In this document: one piece after another, positions 4,171 through 63,478 of the stretch
Layout: every line of letters starts with the position of its first letter
How positions within the stretch are numbered: position 1 is the first letter of the stretch
DNA from: a virus
Taxonomy: Duplodnaviria > Caudoviricetes
Strand: one strand, 5' to 3'
Length of the DNA: 64,000 bases
IMG/VR virus record: IMGVR_UViG_3300039189_000053
Span: 2,012 to 66,011 of that record
Notes under the pieces: generated by a model
Told to the model about the DNA's origin: nothing
The model's database searches: none
The model's input: only the letters and a program-made list of their open reading frames with translations
Translations under genes and position numbers: made by a program

Positions 4171-4564
4171 AAGGGAAACCGTTTTCACCCCACGCCACGA
4201 GTACCAAGGAGATGAGCGTAGCGAATCGACGCCGGTGCGGCTGTGGCGATGGGGTGGAAAAAACAATCAATGCAATACGTAGACTACCTACATTGTTTAC
4301 ATACCCTTTTTCTATACACTCCCCCGCCTTTCGCCCCTTGCCGGGTACTGGCGCCACCTCGCTACGCTGCGGTGGCTTGTACCCACGGGGCTCAAGTCGG
4401 GACCACACTTTAATTTCACGCACCGTCGGTGCTCTGTGGTTTTAGAAAGATTCACTAAAGTTCACTGAAGGGAATCAGGTAAGCCGGACGGTCCCCGCCA
4501 GGGGATCGGTCGGGTTACCCTTCTATATTAGGACGCTTTCAGCAAACTAGCGTAAGAGGCTGTT

Positions 4565-4978
4565 TTGACAGGTAATATCCCACCAATTGACCAGATGCCT
4601 GCATTAAAGGCACAGCTTGGAAAAGCAAGATCTGATCGCGTGCGTTACGCCGGTCAAGCCAACCCCACACCTCCCATTCGGGGAGCCAGTGTGACCAACA
4701 CCGTGATTGAACCCATGCAGTGCATCACACCTCACAAACCGAGTTGCCGTGTCTCTGATGTTCTGACTGGAGTAGCTCGACTTGATAGCACTCGTATCCC
4801 TTTGAGCATCGCTCGATTGTTTACCATGTTCCAATGTGTCCCAGAATTAAATACGAGGGAAATCATGAAAATGACTGGTTTAAATAATCGCCAAGCTCAG
4901 CGATACATGCGTGCTGTTAAAATCGCTCTACCCCACCTTGAACAAATATTTGTGCACGATATAAATTGGTTTGATTAA
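4565..4978 (+). CDS. Putative HTH DNA-binding protein
   Basis: C-terminal LNTREIMKMTGLNNRQAQRYMRAV looks like an HTH; GAGG before a TTG start, start uncertain. Confidence 0.55.
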   Translation: MTGNIPPIDQMPALKAQLGKARSDRVRYAGQANPTPPIRGASVTNTVIEPMQCITPHKPSCRVSDVLTGVARLDSTRIPLSIARLFTMFQCVPELNTREIMKMTGLNNRQAQRYMRAVKIALPHLEQIFVHDINWFD

Positions 4979-44863: not shown

Positions 44864-45201
44864 TGGACATTACAGAAGCAACCGCAGAAGACTTTATCTC
44901 CTTTGTTACCCGTATCGCAGCAGAAACACCTGACCGACCCATTGATCATTGGGGCGGTTGGAATCGTTGTGTAGTTGGTGACTTTGCTCTTGAAGCGTGT
45001 GATCCCGTGGAGGATGAGATTGATATTGGTGACGAGCCCTACCGATTTCTTAACTACGCCGCCCATGAAGACAGAGATGTAGAAGAAGAGTCTTCCCTAT
45101 ATCATATCGTAAATGACTGTACATCAAGCCTCGTAACCTACGGCACATTTGCAGTAGCGGTCACAGCGGCCTACGAAGAGGACAAACGACATGGCTGGTA
45201 A
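44863..45201 (+). CDS. Hypothetical acidic protein
   Basis: TAATG-coupled ORF. Confidence 0.6.
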   Translation: MDITEATAEDFISFVTRIAAETPDRPIDHWGGWNRCVVGDFALEACDPVEDEIDIGDEPYRFLNYAAHEDRDVEEESSLYHIVNDCTSSLVTYGTFAVAVTAAYEEDKRHGW

Positions 45202-46303
45202 TTTCATCAAGTTGTATCAGAACCACGGCGGAACCATTGGCTACTGGTCAGCCTGGGTTGAAGAAGGCGGCCGTGTCTTTGTTCAGTACGCCAAAACTCT
45301 GGACGGTAAACCCGTTCGCAAAGAGTATCAGGCGTACGCCAAGAACGAAGGCCGAGCCAATGCGACCACACCTTTTGAACAGGGTTGCCTGGAAGTAGAC
45401 AGCAAAGCCCGTCTGAAAATGGACAAAGGCTATGTGAAGACCCCGGCTGAAGCAGAGGCACCCAGCACCAATAGCCTGGGCCTACTCAAGCCCATGCTGG
45501 CCACACCCATAGAGAAGATCAAGCCAGAGAAGATCGACTGGGATGACGCCTTCGTACAGCCCAAGCTGGATGGTCACCGGGCATTGTTCACAGACGGTGT
45601 CCTGTACTCCCGCCAGGGTAAGGTACTGGATCTACCCCACATCGTTGAGGCGATTGAAGCAGCCGGCATCGAAGACATGCACCTAGATGGGGAACTGTAC
45701 ATCCATGGCAAGTCCTTACAGGAAATGTCGAAGCTCATCAAAAAGCACCGGCCCGAGTCCTTGGACATTGAGTACCACATCTATGACCAGATCCTGGACG
45801 AACCCTTCCTAACGCGAATCTGCCGATTAGGGAATTCCGTGTCTCATTGGCCGGCAAGCTCACCCCTCAAAGCTGTACCCACTCACAAAGTGGAGTCCAT
45901 GGAACAGTTGATGGAGTTCCACGCGCATTACCGTGAAGCAGGTTACGAAGGTACCATGATTCGTTTTGGCAAAGAGCATTACCGGGACGGCAAACGTTCA
46001 CGGACTCTGCTCAAGATGAAAGAGTTCCAGGACGAAGAGTTCTGTATTGTCGGTGTCCGAGAAGGCAAACCTTACGTCACTGACAAGGGAACCTTTCAGG
46101 TACCGGTCTGGGTGTGCTGTCTCAAAGATGATGCCAGCAAAACATTCACCGTGACTGCTGCAGGCACCATGCAGGAAAAGCATGACCAGTGGGTAAACCA
46201 GGATGACCACCTGTACAAATTTCTCACTGTGAAATTCCACTACTACAGCAGTGATGGCATTCCTCAACTACCAATAGCTCTGCGCTTCCAAGAACTCGTT
46301 TGA
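45191..46303 (+). CDS. ATP-dependent DNA ligase with N-terminal WGR-like domain
   Basis: PMLA, QPKLDGHR, LDGELY, YEGTMIR and LLKMK. Confidence 0.93.
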   Translation: MAGNFIKLYQNHGGTIGYWSAWVEEGGRVFVQYAKTLDGKPVRKEYQAYAKNEGRANATTPFEQGCLEVDSKARLKMDKGYVKTPAEAEAPSTNSLGLLKPMLATPIEKIKPEKIDWDDAFVQPKLDGHRALFTDGVLYSRQGKVLDLPHIVEAIEAAGIEDMHLDGELYIHGKSLQEMSKLIKKHRPESLDIEYHIYDQILDEPFLTRICRLGNSVSHWPASSPLKAVPTHKVESMEQLMEFHAHYREAGYEGTMIRFGKEHYRDGKRSRTLLKMKEFQDEEFCIVGVREGKPYVTDKGTFQVPVWVCCLKDDASKTFTVTAAGTMQEKHDQWVNQDDHLYKFLTVKFHYYSSDGIPQLPIALRFQELV

Positions 46304-51068: not shown

Positions 51069-53069
51069 ATGCGCCACATAGTCTATCAACAGTCGGACAC
51101 CTACCCGATTGCACTGCTTATCAAAAACACTGCATTCAGTGCCGACGAGATCCGCAAAGCCTATGTGGAGCCGTTGGCCAAACGCGGTGTTGATGAAGAA
51201 GACCTGCTGGTTATGGACCTGTATTACAACGCGTCCAACAAAGCACCTACCAGCGTCGTTAAAGAGTATCTGGCCAATCTCATGCCAGAGCTCGCTGCCG
51301 TTAATACCAAGCTCATCTACTGTGCTGATGCTGCCTACTTTCGTGAACTCACGAAAAACAAAGGCAAAGCTGAAGCTCACTTGGGCTATGTACTGCCCTG
51401 CGCCATGGAAGGCTACGAACACATGGAAGTGATTCTGGGTGTCAATCACAAATCACTGATGTACAACCCCAACAACGAGCCCAAGCTGCGTATGTCCCTG
51501 GACACACTCGGCAACAAAGCCGTGGGTAACTACGAAGCCCCGGGCAAAAACATCATCCATTCAGAAAATTATCCAACCGGTGCCTGGGCTATTCAGGATG
51601 CCTTAAACGATCTGCACCAGTACGACACGCTGGCCTGTGACATTGAGACTTTCTCACTGGATTTCGACAAAGCTGGTGTTGGCACCGTTACTTTCTGCTG
51701 GTCCCAGCACGAAGGCATTGCCTTTCCTGTGGACTACGTGGAGATGGATGAGCCAGTAGACAATCTTTACGGCAAGCAGATCGACAACCAGCAAGTGAAA
51801 GTTATGCTGCGTGAGTTCTTTGAAACGTACACCGGCACCATCATCTGGCAAAACTGTCCGTTCGATACCAAGGTGTTTATCTACAACCTGTGGATGGACG
51901 ACCTGCTGGATACCAAAGGGTTGCTCACTGGCTTGGACATTCTGCACAGGCGGATCCACGACACCAAGATCATTGCCTATCTGTCTCTGAACAGTTGCGC
52001 TGGTAACAAGCTCAGCCTAAAAGACCTGGCCCACGAGTTTGCTGGCAACTACGCACAGGAAGACATTAAAGACATTCGCAAGATCCCACTGGCTCAGTTG
52101 CTCAAGTACAACCTGATCGACGGTCTGTGTACCTGGTTTGTGTTCAACAAATACTACCCAATCATGGTGGCTGAACAGCAGGAACCTCTGTATCACGATC
52201 TGATGATGCCAAGCCAAAAAGTCATTACCCAGATCGAGCTCACCGGTATGCCCATGAGTCCCACTCGTGTGCAAAAAGCCCGGGCAAAGCTGGAACAGAT
52301 CCTGGAAGAGCACAAAAATGTGTTGTTTTCCAAACGCATCATTCGAAAACTCGAAAACCAATTGACTCACGAAGCTTGGCATAAGGATTACACCGACCGT
52401 CGTGACAAAGCCAAAAACCCAGACAAGATCTTTCCTAAAGACAAAGCCAAGTTCCCGCAGACTCAGTTCAACCCGAACTCGGGTCCGCAAAATCAAAAGC
52501 TTTTGTACGATCTGATGGACTTGCCAGTGCTTGATCTCACCGATTCCAAGCAGCCGGCAACGGGTGGCGACACGTTGGACAAACTGGTTTTCCACACGGA
52601 CGATCAGGACTACAAAGACATTCTCAATGCGCTTGTAGGCTACGGAAAAGCTGCCAAGATTCTTTCGTCATTCATTCCTGCGTTCGAAAAAGCCATTGAT
52701 AAAGAAGATGGCGTGGTGTATCTGCATGGCTCATTCAATCTGGGCGGTACCAAGTCCGGTCGACTGAGCAGCTCCGATCCCAACCTGCAGAACATTCCAG
52801 CCGGTTCGGTCTATGGCAAGCTGATCAAAGAATGCTTTGTACCACCAGATGGTTTCCTGTTTGCAGGTGCTGACTTCAACTCGCTGGAAGATTACATCAG
52901 TGCCCTGACCACCAAAGACCCAAACAAGCTGAAGGTCTACCAAGGACATGAGGTGTTCGAAGTAACTATAAATAACTCCACACATCATATCCGAGAGGAT
53001 GCTACGGTTGTTTATCAAGGTAAACACTATACAGGGAAAGAGTTTTATGAAACCTATAGCGTATTATGA
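51069..53069 (+). CDS. Family A DNA polymerase, N-terminal part (exonuclease domain through motif A)
   Basis: CDIETF, YNLIDG, TKSGRLSSSDPNLQNIP and motif A GADFNSLED; ends with about 40 non-polymerase residues. Confidence 0.93.
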   Translation: MRHIVYQQSDTYPIALLIKNTAFSADEIRKAYVEPLAKRGVDEEDLLVMDLYYNASNKAPTSVVKEYLANLMPELAAVNTKLIYCADAAYFRELTKNKGKAEAHLGYVLPCAMEGYEHMEVILGVNHKSLMYNPNNEPKLRMSLDTLGNKAVGNYEAPGKNIIHSENYPTGAWAIQDALNDLHQYDTLACDIETFSLDFDKAGVGTVTFCWSQHEGIAFPVDYVEMDEPVDNLYGKQIDNQQVKVMLREFFETYTGTIIWQNCPFDTKVFIYNLWMDDLLDTKGLLTGLDILHRRIHDTKIIAYLSLNSCAGNKLSLKDLAHEFAGNYAQEDIKDIRKIPLAQLLKYNLIDGLCTWFVFNKYYPIMVAEQQEPLYHDLMMPSQKVITQIELTGMPMSPTRVQKARAKLEQILEEHKNVLFSKRIIRKLENQLTHEAWHKDYTDRRDKAKNPDKIFPKDKAKFPQTQFNPNSGPQNQKLLYDLMDLPVLDLTDSKQPATGGDTLDKLVFHTDDQDYKDILNALVGYGKAAKILSSFIPAFEKAIDKEDGVVYLHGSFNLGGTKSGRLSSSDPNLQNIPAGSVYGKLIKECFVPPDGFLFAGADFNSLEDYISALTTKDPNKLKVYQGHEVFEVTINNSTHHIREDATVVYQGKHYTGKEFYETYSVL

Positions 53070-53586
53070 AAACCGTTACTTGATTGGGGAAGATGGAAGT
53101 ATTTTAAATCTGGCCAACAATACCAGACTAACTCCCTCAGAAAATCCAAATGGGTATTTAAAAGTCTCGCTGGCTAATGGTGACGGAACGTCTACACAAC
53201 AAAGTATTCATCGCCTTGTCGCTTTGCACTACGTACCTAACCCTTACGGTTATACTCAAGTTAACCATAAAAACGGTAATAAAAAACACAACCAAGACAC
53301 AAATCTTGAATGGTGTGACCCGTCATACAACATAAACCACGCCTTTAAAACAGGGGTACGTAAGGGGTATATGTCTGCCGATGATAAAGAACATCACTTA
53401 CACCAAGTTCTAAATGGTGCTCAAGTTAATGACATCGCCGTACAAATCAGTAGACGGCCTGAAACACTACATAAGATGTTAAGGGAGACATCAAAAAGAT
53501 TAGGTATACACGATCAATGGCAGGCCGTAATGAAGGAGAACCGTAAAAATGCAGCCATTCGGAACCTTACAAAAGTCAACTCTTGA
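53047..53586 (+). mobile_element. HNH homing endonuclease inserted into the DNA polymerase gene
   Basis: NGYLKVSL...IHRLVA..YVPNP....VNHKNGNKKHN...NLEWC...NINHA; AT-rich insert that overlaps both polymerase halves. Confidence 0.92.
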
Positions 53587-54418
53587 AATACCTGACGGAG
53601 CTGATTTCAGTATTAAACACGTAGGAAGTACCGGAGGTTACGATGGTCACAGTCTGCGTGCGTTCACCTATTGGCCTGAAAAATTCCCCTGGGACGAGCT
53701 CACACCTGAGCGAAGCCATGAGGTGAAGAAGGATAAAGGCGATTTGGGCAAAGCCCGTAGCGATTCTAAAGGACCGACGTTTGCACTGACCTATCAGGGC
53801 ACCTGGCACACGTTGGTTAAAAACCTGGGCTTCGCTAAAGCAGACGCACTGCGGATTGAAGAAAACTACCACGAGCTCTACAAAGTCTCAGACGAGTGGG
53901 TGCGCCAACAGTTAGAAGAAGCTTCTCGTGTTGGTCACGTTAGCATTGCGTTTGGTCTGCGGTTGAGAACACCGCTATTGGCCAAAACGTACCGCAACAA
54001 GTCCAGCACACCGTATGAAGCTGAAGCCGAGGGTCGTACCGCTGGTAACGCACTGGGCCAGTCCTATGGCTTGCTAACCAACCGCTCTATAAACGAGTTC
54101 ATGCAGAAAGTCTGGCAATCACGGTTCCGCTACGACATTAAACCAGTGGCCATGATCCACGACGCCAATTACCTGCTCATCAAAGACGACATTGAAGTAG
54201 TCGAGTGGGTAAACCGGGAGCTGATCAAATCCATGGAATGGCAAGATCTGCCGGAGCTGCATCACCCCACGGTGAAGCTGGGCGCTGCATTGGACATTTT
54301 CTATCCATCTTGGGCCGAGGAATGTACTCTGCCCAACTACGCTGACCAGGAGGAAATCCGTGCTACTTGCGCGGACTTTCAAGCTGAGCTGGCCGAGAAG
54401 CAAAAGGACGCTGCATGA
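53549..54418 (+). CDS. Family A DNA polymerase, C-terminal part (motifs B and C)
   Basis: GYDGHSLRA, RSDSKGPTFALTYQG, NALGQS and MIHDA; own RBS AAGGAG at 53533-53538. Confidence 0.92.
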   Translation: MQPFGTLQKSTLEIPDGADFSIKHVGSTGGYDGHSLRAFTYWPEKFPWDELTPERSHEVKKDKGDLGKARSDSKGPTFALTYQGTWHTLVKNLGFAKADALRIEENYHELYKVSDEWVRQQLEEASRVGHVSIAFGLRLRTPLLAKTYRNKSSTPYEAEAEGRTAGNALGQSYGLLTNRSINEFMQKVWQSRFRYDIKPVAMIHDANYLLIKDDIEVVEWVNRELIKSMEWQDLPELHHPTVKLGAALDIFYPSWAEECTLPNYADQEEIRATCADFQAELAEKQKDAA

Positions 54419-58449: not shown

Positions 58450-59379
58450 ATGGAATTCGCTAAGTACCCAAGTCTTGAAAACGCTTACCGCGAGAAGTAC
58501 GTCAACGCCTGCCGAAACCTGGGTATCCGTGAGTGGGTAGCCACTGAGAAACTGGATGGCTCCAACTTCATGATGGCCAGTGACGGTCACGACCTCATGG
58601 TGGCCAGTCGCAATCAGGTTATTCCCCTAAGCCCGGAAGGTATTTATGAATTCCAGGGATGTACTCTTGTCGTCAACAGATATGCCTCTGACGTGATCCA
58701 GCTTGCCAAGCATATTGGTGCCACTGTTTATGTTTACGGGGAACTTTACGGTCAAGGTATTCAGCGTCGTATCAACTACGGTGACAAAGACTTTGCAGCC
58801 TTCGACATTATGACGGAGGACGGTACCTTCTTACCGTGGGATGAAATGGCAACACTGTGTGCTGCGTTTGAGCTGCCTATCGTTCCCGAACTGCGTCGTG
58901 GTTCGATTGAAAACCTACTGACTATGTCACCTGAGTTCAACAGCTACTTGAGTTCAGATCGCGCAGAAGGCTTCACGATCAAACCAGTCAGCTCTCAAGC
59001 TCGACTACCCACCGGAAGTCGTCCGGTCATCAAGTCCAAGAGCCAGGCCTTTAGTGAGATCAAGCCTAAGAGATCCAAGCAACCCACGACACTAGGTGCT
59101 GTTGAAGCGCAAGCCTTGGAGGACTTCACCGGCTACCTCACGGAGAACCGCCTGCATAACGTCCTGAGCAAAGAGACTGCTATCAAGCAGTCTGACTTCG
59201 GGCGAATCACCGGACTGCTGATCCAGGATGCCCTGACAGAGTTCACACGTGACGCCTACCTTATTGACAAGGACACCTGGAAAGTCATCAAGAAACCTGT
59301 TGGCGCTGAGGCCAGTAAGGTCATCCGGGCGCAGTGGTTGAACATCCTTGACTCTTTTACCAATGAGGTACCTGCATGA
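58450..59379 (+). CDS. RNA ligase, Rnl2 family
   Basis: F.KYPSLEN, ATEKLDGSNF, GELYG, FAAFDI, EGFTIKP, IKSK..FSE and C-terminal RL.NVLSK. Confidence 0.92.
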   Translation: MEFAKYPSLENAYREKYVNACRNLGIREWVATEKLDGSNFMMASDGHDLMVASRNQVIPLSPEGIYEFQGCTLVVNRYASDVIQLAKHIGATVYVYGELYGQGIQRRINYGDKDFAAFDIMTEDGTFLPWDEMATLCAAFELPIVPELRRGSIENLLTMSPEFNSYLSSDRAEGFTIKPVSSQARLPTGSRPVIKSKSQAFSEIKPKRSKQPTTLGAVEAQALEDFTGYLTENRLHNVLSKETAIKQSDFGRITGLLIQDALTEFTRDAYLIDKDTWKVIKKPVGAEASKVIRAQWLNILDSFTNEVPA

Positions 59380-62064: not shown

Positions 62065-62291
62065 ATAAAGACGTTATTAACCCTGCCTATGTGCAGATCA
62101 GCAAAAAACAAGCTGCGTCTATTCTCGGCTTCAGCGAACGGGAACTAGATAACCGCCGCAAGAATGACAAACGCTGTCCCAAAGGCTTCAAGGAATACGA
62201 CACTCGCTCATCGCCGGTGCGTTTCCGTCTGTCCGACATTTACACGTACAGTGAAGCCATTATGAACGACGCCATGGAAGCGACAGGCTAG
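62061..62291 (+). CDS. xis: Excisionase / AlpA-like recombination directionality factor
   Basis: ISKKQAASILGFSERELDNRRK...PKG...VRFRLSDI winged HTH; convergent with the integrase. Confidence 0.8.
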   Translation: MNKDVINPAYVQISKKQAASILGFSERELDNRRKNDKRCPKGFKEYDTRSSPVRFRLSDIYTYSEAIMNDAMEATG

Positions 62292-63478
62292 GATTTCTCC
62301 AGCTTGTCCAGGTAGTCCGCATACCATTGCATCATCTTTTTCCGCTGCTCCAGGTAGACAGCCTTGTTGTATACCCCGGCCACACCCTGCACTTTATGCG
62401 CCAACTGAGCCTCGATCACATGGTGGTCCCAGCCATGTTCGTGCAGCAACGTAGAGGCCGTGTGCCGGCAACCATGGCCCACCAGCTTGTCTCTGTATCC
62501 CACAGACTGCAGGGCCTTATTGATGGCCACTTCGCTGATCACAGCGTTCTGCCCGCTGCCGGGGAAAACATACTGGTTCAAGCCAGTACGCTCATGGAGC
62601 TTGCGGAGTTCTTCAACCGTTTGCTGAGCCAGAGGAACAACATGGGCTACCCGTGTTTTCATCTTTGGCGCCGGTATCGTCCACACTCCATTGTCCAAAT
62701 CCATCTCCGACCATTCGGCCCTACGGGCCGAGCCTGGCCGGGATGCCGTTCTTAACACCAACCGAACCAGTGTCAGAGTGATGATGGTTCCTCTTGAACG
62801 CCGCAGGGCCTTCAGGAAAGCCGGTAGCTCGTCTTCCAATAGATGAGGGTACTGTTTTTCTTTAATGCCTTCCTGAGCGATCTGACGCAGTTCACTGGCT
62901 GGATTCAATTCCAACAGGCCTTGGCCAATGGCCAGTGAGAATATCTGTGTCAGCCATCGCCGTATCTTGGCCGCAATTACATACGAGCCACGCGCCTCAA
63001 GGTTCGCCTGGATCTTGGCACAGTCGGCCCGGGTGATCTGTTTCAGTCCCAGGTCACCAAGCACTGGGTAAATGTCTTTTTCCAAGTAGCCTTTGTACTG
63101 CTTCAGGCTCCCGTGTGACCGGCCGGCCACAACTTTGCGCCGATACCAGTCATCCCCTACGGTGCGGAACAACACATCGTCACTGGCGGGGTTGTTTGCC
63201 GGTTTGGCTATGTCTACCCCATTGGACAAGTCTTTCAGTATCTGGTGTGCCTTCTCTCGCGCTATTTTGCCGGATACTGACGGGAAGCCACCCAGGCCTT
63301 TCCAGGCCCAAGAACCGTTGGGTCGTTTGTATCGCAGCATCCATGACTTGGTGCCGTTGGGCTTCACGCGGAAATACAGGTTAGGGCTGTCTTTCTCCTG
63401 ATACTCCTTAGCGTCAGGCTCAAGGTTCGTCAGAACGCTGTCTGCGAGCGGCCTGCGCTTGATTTGAGATCGTTTCAT
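62288..63478 (-). CDS. int: Tyrosine recombinase integrase (P4-like, with arm-binding domain)
   Basis: N-terminal LYFRVKPNGTKSW; catalytic R (TASRP), K (MKTR), HGCRH, H (QLAH) and Y (GVYN). Confidence 0.96.
   Translation of the reverse strand: MKRSQIKRRPLADSVLTNLEPDAKEYQEKDSPNLYFRVKPNGTKSWMLRYKRPNGSWAWKGLGGFPSVSGKIAREKAHQILKDLSNGVDIAKPANNPASDDVLFRTVGDDWYRRKVVAGRSHGSLKQYKGYLEKDIYPVLGDLGLKQITRADCAKIQANLEARGSYVIAAKIRRWLTQIFSLAIGQGLLELNPASELRQIAQEGIKEKQYPHLLEDELPAFLKALRRSRGTIITLTLVRLVLRTASRPGSARRAEWSEMDLDNGVWTIPAPKMKTRVAHVVPLAQQTVEELRKLHERTGLNQYVFPGSGQNAVISEVAINKALQSVGYRDKLVGHGCRHTASTLLHEHGWDHHVIEAQLAHKVQGVAGVYNKAVYLEQRKKMMQWYADYLDKLEKS

Follow-up and report, generated by a model that had tools for sequence, protein, structure and literature searches.

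The DNA polymerase gene of this N4-like phage, which encodes a family A enzyme, is interrupted by a predicted homing endonuclease cassette, and its product is best read as an unspliced two-chain polymerase reassembled with tails that the element itself carries, a reading we consider fairly likely. Within the window (the whole stretch of 64,000 nt that was analysed), a 695-nt low-GC cassette separates KVY from GYDGH in the polymerase gene. It contains a 42-codon tail on the N-terminal half (N-tail), a free-standing NUMOD4/HNH gene and, on the C-terminal half, a 29-codon leader (C-leader) that brings a start codon and a ribosome-binding site of its own. These short tails probably hold the polymerase halves together without splicing.

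The anatomy of three open reading frames (ORFs), all on the plus strand, bears out the initial annotation of a polymerase gene split by a free-standing HNH gene; every coordinate given there was reproduced, base for base, in the ORF list and the sequence. The N-half ORF (51069-53069, 666 aa) reaches ...DPNKLKVY and then continues with QG, 40 foreign residues and a stop. Its native part (51069..52940) comprises the 3'-5' exonuclease domain together with the polymerase domain as far as motif A and ends in DPNKLKVY; it matches Pfam DNA_pol_A (E 5.8e-26) and DNA_pol_A_exo1, is ~50% identical to N4-like phage polymerases and is modelled by AF2 with a mean pLDDT of 91. The N-tail (52941..53069, 42 foreign codons and the stop) forms the C terminus of this half and shares its final 23 nt with the endonuclease gene (53047..53586, 179 aa; NUMOD4-like N terminus and HNH motif). 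The start of the latter is most likely 53047, 5 nt 3' of a purine-rich Shine-Dalgarno-like stretch read from the sequence (53034..53042); a longer ORF from ATG 52999 is also open. Inside the HNH gene lies the AAGGAG ribosome-binding site (53533..53538) of the C-half ORF (53549-54418, 289 aa), which opens at ATG 53549 with the 29 foreign codons of the C-leader (53549..53635, the first 38 nt overlapping the HNH gene end) ahead of GYDGHSLRA. The native C-half (53636..54418) carries motifs B and C and covers DNA_pol_A profile positions 205-364.

Because the three ORFs, each in a different reading frame, overlap (53047-53069 and 53549-53586), every base of the insert is coding, as originally claimed. 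The proposed excision of 52947-53635 likewise checks out: it removes 689 nt, a GGA codon precedes both junctions and the frame is restored. The foreign block itself is best set at ~52941-53635, its exact edge being able to shift by a few bases, since many relatives retain a native Thr-Asp on the C-half side (TD directly precedes GYDGH in 11 of 23). GC content drops from 0.497 in the native N-half to 0.372 in the N-tail, 0.402 in the HNH gene and 0.425 in the C-leader, and is 0.527 in the native C-half. The window region had no megablast match among phage records. By its catalytic motif and family match, the product of 53047..53586 classifies as a putative HNH homing endonuclease: it matches PHROG phrog_59 'HNH endonuclease' (E 5.1e-34), with Pfam HNH_3 and NUMOD4 below their cut-offs (17.9 bits each), and shares 60-63% identity with its counterparts at this site in Pollock, Pylas, VEc25 and SP5M, the His/Asn motif columns being invariant across the five sequences aligned.

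The arms are foreign in origin and travel together with the HNH gene. Comparison with uninterrupted N4-like polymerases, which the initial annotation had called for, found both extensions absent there: Salmonella phage SP-058, Erwinia phage MIF8, Klebsiella phage P184 and phage N4 have no insert and read KVY-TD-GYDGH or KV[YF]-TD-GFDGH. The tails also have the GC content of the element (0.37-0.43) as opposed to that of the native halves (0.50 and 0.53). The site is polymorphic within a single species group, KVY-TD-GYDGH being uninterrupted in N4 and two sister isolates, with a 695-nt insertion at N4's empty site in VEc25 and 11 other records. Since N4 lacks the cassette and the near-identical VEc25 has it, the tails and the HNH gene move as one unit. 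Of the 27 mismatches between N4 and VEc25 upstream of the insertion, 15 fall within the last 137 columns before it; downstream there are only 8 over 669 columns. Presence/absence polymorphism together with flank mismatches clustered next to the insertion would fit homing.

The cassette is widespread. N-halves ending in the conserved tail account for 115 of the best 120 among 653 metagenomic matches, and the KVY-to-GYDGH spacing is 695 or 701 nt in all 13 phage or viral loci examined; the arrangement is far beyond chance. A tail-pattern search returned 20 metagenome loci, all of them the polymerase gene and 17 with an HNH-like ORF and a C-half. The cassette is also present in viable cultured phages, four genera of which carry it at the same site (Pollock, Pylas and VEc25 among them). 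A second break point lies ~25 codons downstream and bears a similar tail (P0114, P0115, P0116, P0120 and the locus pair L024/L025), with a related HNH gene in L024 (52% identical); the tail therefore goes with the element, not with the target. The search for the extension pair at other loci, suggested by the initial annotation, yielded this second site within the polymerase gene and no other gene. With tblastn against phage records, 19 of 21 tail matches were the polymerase site and the other two were noise (E 8). The tail profile, run against 1.84 billion representatives, gave 42 matches; none of the 16 fetched lay outside the polymerase gene, 14 having the motif A context and 2 being fragments. 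We had considered the tail as a general-purpose module used in other genes and rejected this, polymerase contexts being the only ones among the fetched profile matches and the tblastn matches above noise. ESM Atlas held no usable match, and a word-index search for more contiguous or C-half relatives returned the query itself or one relative only.

The catalytic residues of the polymerase are distributed over the two halves. The acidic residues D602 and E607 are invariant in 109 N-halves, and K74, Y82, G84 and H204-D205 in 10 C-halves; we take D602/E607, K74/Y82 and H204-D205 to represent motifs A, B and C, respectively, of family A polymerases. These data bear on the simplest alternative, that the gene is just broken and the phage depends on a host or other polymerase. 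The interruption itself speaks for it and nothing more, whereas across more than 100 phages each half is an intact ORF that retains its invariant catalytic motifs, and the arrangement is found in cultured plaque-forming phages of several genera. We find this alternative scarcely credible.

Both extensions look like translated protein. Across 11 distinct elements, N-tail mean pairwise differences at codon positions 1, 2 and 3 are 0.26, 0.28 and 0.50, third positions being about twice as variable as first and second, with pN/pS of 0.44; these comparisons indicate selection on the N-tail at the protein level. Constraint is weaker in the C-leader (0.53, 0.37 and 0.67; pN/pS 0.62), whose first 12 codons are under additional constraint from the HNH frame that they overlap. 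The leader has a conserved pattern, h-P-x-G-A-x-h-x-h-K-x-h-G-x-T. Comparison of the loci indicates that the initiation signals of the C-half are conserved: a start codon (ATG, GTG or TTG) stands 28-31 codons ahead of GYDGH in all 27, the C-half frame is closed ~5 codons further upstream in 22 and an SD-like motif precedes the start in 23, even though the overlapping HNH residues vary by subtype. From these start codons and motifs the two halves are predicted to be translated separately. The net charge of the N-tail is negative in 24 of 24 relatives and that of the C-leader positive in 20 of 23; in the window the leader is at -1, against the family trend. The initial view of the extensions as real stands: they are selected, have conserved C-half start signals, travel with the endonuclease and are predicted to form β-strands.

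Group I introns with an HNH ORF occur in the polymerase genes of T7-like phages, and the present element has itself been called one: a self-splicing intron encoding the endonuclease, whose spliced mRNA would give full-length polymerase. The Pollock genome announcement speaks of an 'intron-encoded HNH endonuclease' (PMC4319500), a report on N4-like phages of Vibrio makes the same suggestion (PMC3670811) and the Pylas record merges both halves into one CDS; the passages of these papers that use the term give no splicing data. Removal of 689 nt does restore the frame, and phage group I introns are able to overlap their ORFs. The rule of a U before the 5' cut and a G at the intron end can be satisfied, yet it is uninformative, being obeyed by 56 of 987 frame-restoring cut pairs; the sole one that keeps the native spacing (52936/53625) removes the invariant Tyr of KVY. 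The claim that the insert lacks a group I core held up in covariance-model scans. Rfam, which can miss introns with large ORFs, gave no group I match in window positions 52600-54000 at E <= 10, nor in the cassettes of Pollock, Pylas, VEc25 and L024 at E <= 1. The same scan did register a sub-threshold Intron_gpI signal (24 bits, E 0.033) in a different HNH insertion, that of Shigella phage B2. There, too, a family A polymerase gene is broken at a conserved motif by an HNH gene, but in B2 this gene lies between non-coding flanks of 89 and 73 nt and comes with no tails, whereas the cassette has neither non-coding flanks nor an Intron_gpI match. Moreover, only 49 nt of the cassette remain beyond the HNH stop, the C-half start codon is kept in every locus and protein-level selection on the N-tail is unexpected for an efficiently spliced intron. 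Taken from sequence as they are, these observations argue against the published intron annotation, which we regard as improbable.

Could the tails instead belong to a degenerate split intein, one still able to join the halves by trans-splicing, with unusual chemistry? The architecture matches that of the 'fractured genes' (Dassa et al. 2009, PMC2677866), and the best PDB match of the N-tail profile is 9HTH (E 0.16), the Aes123 PolB1 split intein (PMC11923092), with a second stretch near the C terminus of 9HTH. This match is not significant, however, and the tails total ~70 residues against the 130-150 of a Hint fold (PMC11923092). The first tail residue is Met (13), Thr (7) or Gln (4) in 24 relatives and never Cys or Ser, the last two C-leader residues are never His-Asn in 23 and the residue that follows is Gly, so that the nucleophile at tail position 1, the terminal His-Asn and Cys/Ser/Thr at +1 are all absent. 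Pfam and NCBIfam intein models do not match the tails at E <= 10. The initial annotation's verdict that there is no working intein chemistry thus agrees with ours, and trans-splicing is in our estimate highly improbable. Its proposed resemblance to Hint-domain strands was not upheld: beyond the 9HTH match, none of Pfam, NCBIfam, Foldseek and VIA-align returned any Hint-type match, and the C-leader profile had no match in the PDB. Derivation of the tails from a Hint domain may serve as a lead. The HHIRDD motif was also considered as a catalytic relic and set aside, the pattern [IVL]R[DE][DE] occurring in only 87 of 115 tails and not universally.

We return to a polymerase of two unspliced chains and to the structure of its tails. 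In the AF2 prediction the N-tail folds into four strands and a helix (pLDDT 66-85). A contiguous homologue, P0117, contains both tail-like and leader-like parts, modelled as strands (pLDDT 77-90) around a low-confidence linker; the segment corresponding to the C-leader forms two predicted strands (pLDDT 87-90). The alignment underlying the P0117 model is imperfect at the N-tail end, which MAFFT repeatedly aligned to the native GYDGH helix. The leader profile aligns at the expected place in P0117, weakly (E 0.038). An origin of the linker as a remnant of the HNH N terminus was dropped, being unsupported by hhalign. The initial annotation had reasoned that extensions found in an uninterrupted homologue would count against its proposal. 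This does occur, once, P0117 being one of the 120 best matches and a singleton in its own search, and we read it not as a refutation but as showing that the two tails form one structural unit.

Complex modelling, another suggestion of the initial annotation, was carried out on the tails alone. It predicts contact, with an ipSAE of 0.32 against 0.01 for the best control, run agreement of at least 82% of contacts and partner pLDDT of at least 54, and is a weak pass only (verdict 'weak support'). In the tool's calibration, 58 of 80 solved complexes and 2 of 110 mismatched pairs attained this mark; passes at or below 0.60 came from only 7 of the 80 and from both mismatches, such that a weak pass errs more often than it is correct, except where the guess is already likely. 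The prediction was built on custom alignments, with 10 rows only on the C side.

That weak score lends something to a further alternative, in which the gene is split and unspliced, the halves meet through the ordinary polymerase interface and the tails are kept for some other reason, such as translational coupling or HNH control, protection of the chain ends, or contact with DNA or a replication protein. The palm domain, split between the halves, should leave a large native interface, judging from family A structures, and the fragments of Aeh1 NrdA associate even when their tails are missing (Crona et al. 2010, PMC3045599). In addition, the 3' end of the N-tail overlaps the HNH start, as does the 5' end of the C-leader the HNH end. 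Yet the selected portion of the N-tail lies upstream of that overlap, the N-tail is predicted to fold, and its counterpart and that of the leader are both confident strands in contiguous P0117. Opposite tail charges across the family and recurrence of the same tail type at a second site with different flanks also speak against this alternative, which we judge unlikely.

For the two-chain polymerase held together by its tails, we propose the following sequence of events. An HNH cassette flanked by two short coding arms would have inserted between the KVY and TD-GYDGH codons. Gene continuity would not be restored by splicing; instead, one message would yield three proteins: the N-half, bearing motif A and ending in an acidic tail of 42 residues, the endonuclease, and the C-half with motifs B and C, translated from its own ATG and ribosome-binding site and led by 29 residues that are basic in most relatives. 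The arms, belonging to the cassette and not to the polymerase, may together form a small β-sheet unit that ties or positions both chains to create a composite active site. As the arms would reunite the chains, the insertion would be harmless to the phage and the endonuclease could live in an essential gene. We infer that the tails bind one another, that assembly or activity requires them and that spliced RNA or protein does not exist. A stronger version, which we hold as possible though somewhat doubtful, is that the tails are halves of a self-contained, transferable heterodimerisation domain, possibly a half-Hint relic, serving the HNH lineage as an antidote to its own damage.

Comparable splits are known in other phage genes. 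In Aeromonas phages 25 and 44RR, Petrov, Karam and co-workers reportedly found gene 43, encoding a family B polymerase, as two cistrons around a homing endonuclease gene, and the split enzyme is said to work as two chains. As with the cassette, a homing endonuclease gene thus lies between two cistrons of a phage replicative polymerase, but the polymerase family and break point differ; we know of no description of a conserved tail pair for split gene 43. In phage Aeh1, the order nrdA-a, mobE, nrdA-b is said to have been described by Friedrich et al. in 2007. This system resembles the cassette in that an essential replication-related gene is split by a free-standing gene for an HNH-type homing endonuclease, which overlaps the downstream half, each half is translated on its own and two chains contribute to the active site (here predicted), foreign low-GC tails of opposite charge occupy the new C and N termini, and neither RNA nor protein splicing takes place (here inferred).

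According to Crona et al. (2010, PMC3045599), the element-derived Aeh1 tails are essential for activity, with the same predicted for other fractured genes; they are dispensable for binding of the fragments to each other and needed only at a later assembly step. Two-chain reassembly by element-borne tails thus already has a published precedent, and it concerns the same Aeh1 case that the initial annotation cited while being aware of no module dedicated to reassembly. In Aeh1 the host gene is a ribonucleotide reductase, here a family A DNA polymerase, and tail polarity is reversed, the Aeh1 N-fragment tail being basic (PMC3045599) and the N-half tail here acidic. Whereas the Aeh1 tails are described as unique and expected to vary case by case (PMC3045599), here one tail pair is conserved over more than 100 phages and two sites, selected and predicted to form β-strands. 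The fractured genes of Dassa et al. (2009, PMC2677866) share with the cassette the order of N-part plus extension, endonuclease gene, extension plus C-part, and their location in phage DNA-metabolism genes. They carry complete split inteins with catalytic residues and GIY-YIG or Vsr-like endonucleases; the cassette's extensions are half the size and without any splicing residue, and its endonuclease is HNH.

Crona et al. (PMC3045599) suggest, from the one case studied, that element-borne tails could generally neutralise gene fragmentation. The cassette extends this single precedent to a conserved, selected tail pair that accompanies a single endonuclease lineage across more than 100 phages and two sites, which renders the idea testable in cultured coliphages. 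If the tails are indeed a heterodimerisation domain, this would be a third way for a mobile element to reside inside a coding sequence, neither RNA nor protein splicing, one that works at more than one insertion site and still folds after loss of the endonuclease, as in contiguous P0117. Should the tails bind on their own, they would make a small natural split-protein tag. N4, without the cassette, and VEc25, with it, are almost isogenic. Finally, genome papers and records call the element an intron; the evidence presented here suggests that the replicative polymerase of many N4-like phages is a two-chain enzyme.

The window spans most of a 66-kb virus record, and its genes are those of an N4-like podophage: among others, an ORF of 3378 residues (the size of a virion RNA polymerase), a portal of SU10 type, part of an RNA polymerase and a ribonucleotide reductase. 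Its family A DNA polymerase, ~50% identical to known Schitoviridae polymerases, is encoded by two ORFs with a third in between. The N-half (51069–53069, + strand, 666 aa) contains the exonuclease domain and motif A. It is followed by an HNH gene (53047–53586, +, 179 aa), which matches phrog_59 (E 5e-34) and, only below cut-off, Pfam HNH_3 and NUMOD4, and then by the C-half (53549–54418, +, 289 aa). The coordinates of the initial annotation are all correct, both for the 689-nt interval, with a GGA codon ahead of each junction, and for the signals of the C-half, AAGGAG at 53533–53538 and ATG at 53549. Elsewhere in the window, 58450–59376 (+) and 45191–46300 (+) encode a T4 Rnl2-like RNA ligase (RNA_ligase, E 3e-23, plus T4_Rnl2_C) and an ATP-dependent DNA ligase. 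A tyrosine integrase lies near the genome end (62291–63478, –; Phage_integrase, E 1.6e-23, Arm-DNA-bind_3 and Phage_int_M). N4-like phages are usually held to be virulent, and this genome may be that of a temperate relative or a prophage end.

The extensions at the break are foreign to the polymerase. The uninterrupted relatives SP-058, MIF8, P184 and N4 read KVY-TD-GYDGH, with no residues between; in the window, KVY is followed by a tail of 42 other residues and a stop, and a 29-residue leader precedes GYDGH. The tail has a GC content of 0.372, the HNH gene 0.402 and the leader 0.425, against 0.497 and 0.527 in the native halves.

The extensions also move with the endonuclease. The insert is held by 17 of 23 matching phage records (at least 80% of a 1401-nt stretch covered), and three further records, cut by the record end, still hold the HNH gene of this stretch; N4, 3HA13 and OLB145 give two-piece matches spanning only 706 nt of it. 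VEc25 is of the same species as N4, and direct alignment of the two reveals a clean 695-nt insertion in VEc25, with the two native codons altered. Upstream, 15 of 27 mismatches fall within the last 137 columns before the insertion, and downstream there are only 8 in 669 columns; such crowding at the upstream edge is what homing with flank co-conversion would be expected to leave. The same cassette, with like tail and leader, occurs in Pollock, Pylas, SP5M and PD205 (four genera), and in 13 of 13 loci KVY and GYDGH lie 695 or 701 nt apart.

The cassette is currently annotated as an intron, probably wrongly. That label was given to it in the Pollock paper (PMC4319500) and for Vibrio N4-like phages (PMC3670811), the available text of which offers no data behind it, and the Pylas record joins both polymerase halves as one CDS. 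Rfam searches for a group I intron returned no match at E ≤ 10 in the cassette region of the window and none at E ≤ 1 in Pollock, Pylas, VEc25 or the related locus L024; the group I splice-site rule does not discriminate for the cassette. Shigella phage B2 serves both as a partial positive control for the scan and as a contrast case. Its different HNH insertion (L004, 4157–4865) lies in the same polymerase gene between SSSKP and NMQQIP, is flanked by non-coding stretches of 89 and 73 nt, lacks tails, gives a sub-threshold Intron_gpI match at 4561–4812 (24 bits, E 0.033) and is probably a true group I intron.

An intein was likewise rejected. The three ORFs lie in different frames, with stops; the tails together amount to ~70 residues; the catalytic residues are absent, the first tail residue being Met, Thr or Gln, the leader end never His-Asn and the next residue Gly; and no intein model in Pfam or NCBIfam matched at E ≤ 10. 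The initial annotation had likened the extensions to Hint-domain strands and suggested that they may be a splicing-dead module; a Hint origin is a tentative lead. The best match of the tail profile in the PDB, not significant (E 0.32, then 0.16), is 9HTH, the Aes123 PolB1 split intein (PMC11923092). It matches in one stretch near the N terminus and a second, weaker one near the C terminus, and is notable because the intein idea had been put forward beforehand and inteins make up a small, uncounted share of the PDB. Fold searches with the sole single-chain model available gave no match.

Coding statistics bear the marks of selection. Over the 33 tail codons that precede the overlap with the HNH gene, differences at codon positions 1, 2 and 3 average 0.26, 0.28 and 0.50 among 11 distinct elements, and pN/pS is 0.44 with pS near saturation; this pattern indicates translation of the tail and selection on its amino-acid sequence. 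Constraint on the leader is weaker, with position differences of 0.53, 0.37 and 0.67 and a pN/pS of 0.62 over the 16 codons past the HNH stop. The start codon of the C-half lies 28–31 codons ahead of GYDGH in 27 of 27 loci and is preceded by a Shine–Dalgarno-like motif in 23, even in loci with different overlapping HNH residues (KE versus RR subtypes); in 22 of the 27 the frame is closed ~five codons further upstream.

AlphaFold2 modelling of the N-half from 109 sequences (mean pLDDT 91) predicts a tail of four strands (629–634, 637–642, 646–649 and 652–655) and a helix (656–663) at pLDDT 66–85; with the partner chain absent, pLDDT falls to ~55 around motif A. P0117, a full-length polymerase of 927 aa, has tail-like and leader-like parts joined by ~25 residues without an HNH gene, and is a singleton in its own search. 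A model of a 152-residue piece of it (mean pLDDT 72, pTM 0.62), built from an alignment that is imperfect at the tail end, has three strands in the tail-like part (pLDDT 77–89) and two in the leader-like part (pLDDT 87–90), with a low-confidence linker at the position of the HNH gene in other elements. The tails-only complex (N-half 618–666 with C-half 1–40) reached an ipSAE of 0.32 (median of three runs; best control 0.01), with at least 82% of contacts agreeing between runs and partner pLDDT of at least 54, and was graded as weak support. In calibration, 58 of the 80 solved complexes and 2 of the 110 mismatched pairs had attained this mark, passes at 0.60 or under comprising only 7 of the 80 solved complexes and both mismatches. 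The net charge of the tail is below zero in 24 of 24 relatives (mean −4.9) and that of the leader above zero in 20 of 23 (mean +2.35), the leader of the window being at −1.

The best reading, and one we hold to be fairly probable, is that the gene is split without splicing and that the tails have a role; the interpretation in the initial annotation is in part supported. The endonuclease would cut the empty allele and the whole cassette would be copied in by repair, the polymerase thereafter being made as two chains, one carrying the motif A acidic residues, the second motifs B and C. Invariant columns, which we take to be these motifs, comprise the acidic residues of motif A in N-halves and the motif B and C residues in C-halves. 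The break separates the motif A helix from the conserved GYDGH, and aligns between LLNQ and GRDLH of the solved polymerase 7R0K. At this point the tail, which is acidic, would pair with the leader, which is mostly basic, in a small sheet that would tether or orient the halves. P0146 (90 aa) is a tail fused in frame to what appears, by eye only, to be an HNH C-terminal end; it and P0117 may be cassettes that lost the endonuclease. Such degenerate forms are consistent with a homing cycle that retains the tails while the endonuclease decays.

A second insertion site bears on what the tail would contact. Four proteins (P0114, P0115, P0116 and P0120) and the locus pair L024/L025 read on through GYDGH for ~25 residues before a tail of like pattern, made up of a pair of short strands, a turn that is acidic, and DG-x-x-Y-[ST]-G-x-x-F-Y. 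Downstream of the tail, L024 has an HNH gene, 52% identical to the cassette HNH family, and a C-part whose start overlaps the HNH end. A like tail beside different polymerase sequence argues that it would pair with the opposite arm of the cassette rather than with any one polymerase surface.

A database search scored on N-half residues 600–666 gave 653 proteins at E ≤ 0.001; among the best 120, 115 are N-halves ending 36–54 residues past KVY with this tail, four are broken at the second site and in one, a full-length polymerase, the insertion is contiguous. Scanning metagenomes by tail pattern gave 20 loci, all within the polymerase gene, 17 of them with an HNH-like ORF and then a leader-bearing C-half; two others run off the contig, and L044 has neither. 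In L044 the tail (2501–2635) is followed by ~900 nt lacking the HNH gene and C-half, an unrelated 726-residue ORF coming next, which may reflect rearrangement or an assembly chimera. A 24-tail profile run against 1.84 billion representative proteins gave 42 matches at E ≤ 0.001. Of the 16 fetched, 14 have the motif A context immediately before the tail and the other 2 are fragments; a further seven of the 42 are N-halves already in the 653-protein search, and two long repeat proteins align to only 15 profile positions. Against 50,697 phage records, the tail found 19 N4-like polymerase sites and two chance matches at E 8. From these contexts in the phage records and the fetched profile matches, the tail pair is specific to this cassette lineage and this gene, and is not a module common to many genes.

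Related polymerases carry further irregularities. The P0096 N-half (954 aa) has a real intein between SSS and DPN (Pfam Hint_2, Cys start, HN-S end) plus the HNH-cassette tail; two kinds of element have struck one polymerase gene. The C-half changes frame between PTF and ALTYQG at the same place in six loci of three phage lineages (L011 and L039, both 959–979; L034, 1546–1566; L024 and L025, 3138–3158; L042, 3334–3354), each with one extra base in a TTT-C context; the window is in frame at this site. The one-base change recurs at one conserved codon, which makes a programmed +1 shift on UUU-C seem likelier than sequencing error. In the metagenome contig L031 an in-frame TAG interrupts the conserved ALTYQG motif (~1200–1230; ALT-stop-TYQG), and the N-half is likewise out of frame, upstream of KVY.

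The closest known case, cited in the initial annotation, is NrdA-a/NrdA-b of phage Aeh1 with mobE. According to Crona et al. (2010; PMC3045599), its oppositely charged tails arrived with the mobE insertion and are essential for activity, being needed at a later assembly step and not for fragment binding; tails were proposed as a general antidote to fragmentation, expected to vary case by case. The concept of element-borne tails is already known: this paper goes further than the initial annotation, which knew of no dedicated reassembly module of the kind. The 'fractured genes' of Dassa et al. (2009; PMC2677866) have a gene order like that of the cassette but use complete split inteins. No description of tails on N4-like polymerase halves was found in the open-access articles searched. 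What is new is a conserved, selected and, by prediction, structured tail pair tied to one HNH lineage, which sits in the replicative polymerase of many N4-like phages at two sites.
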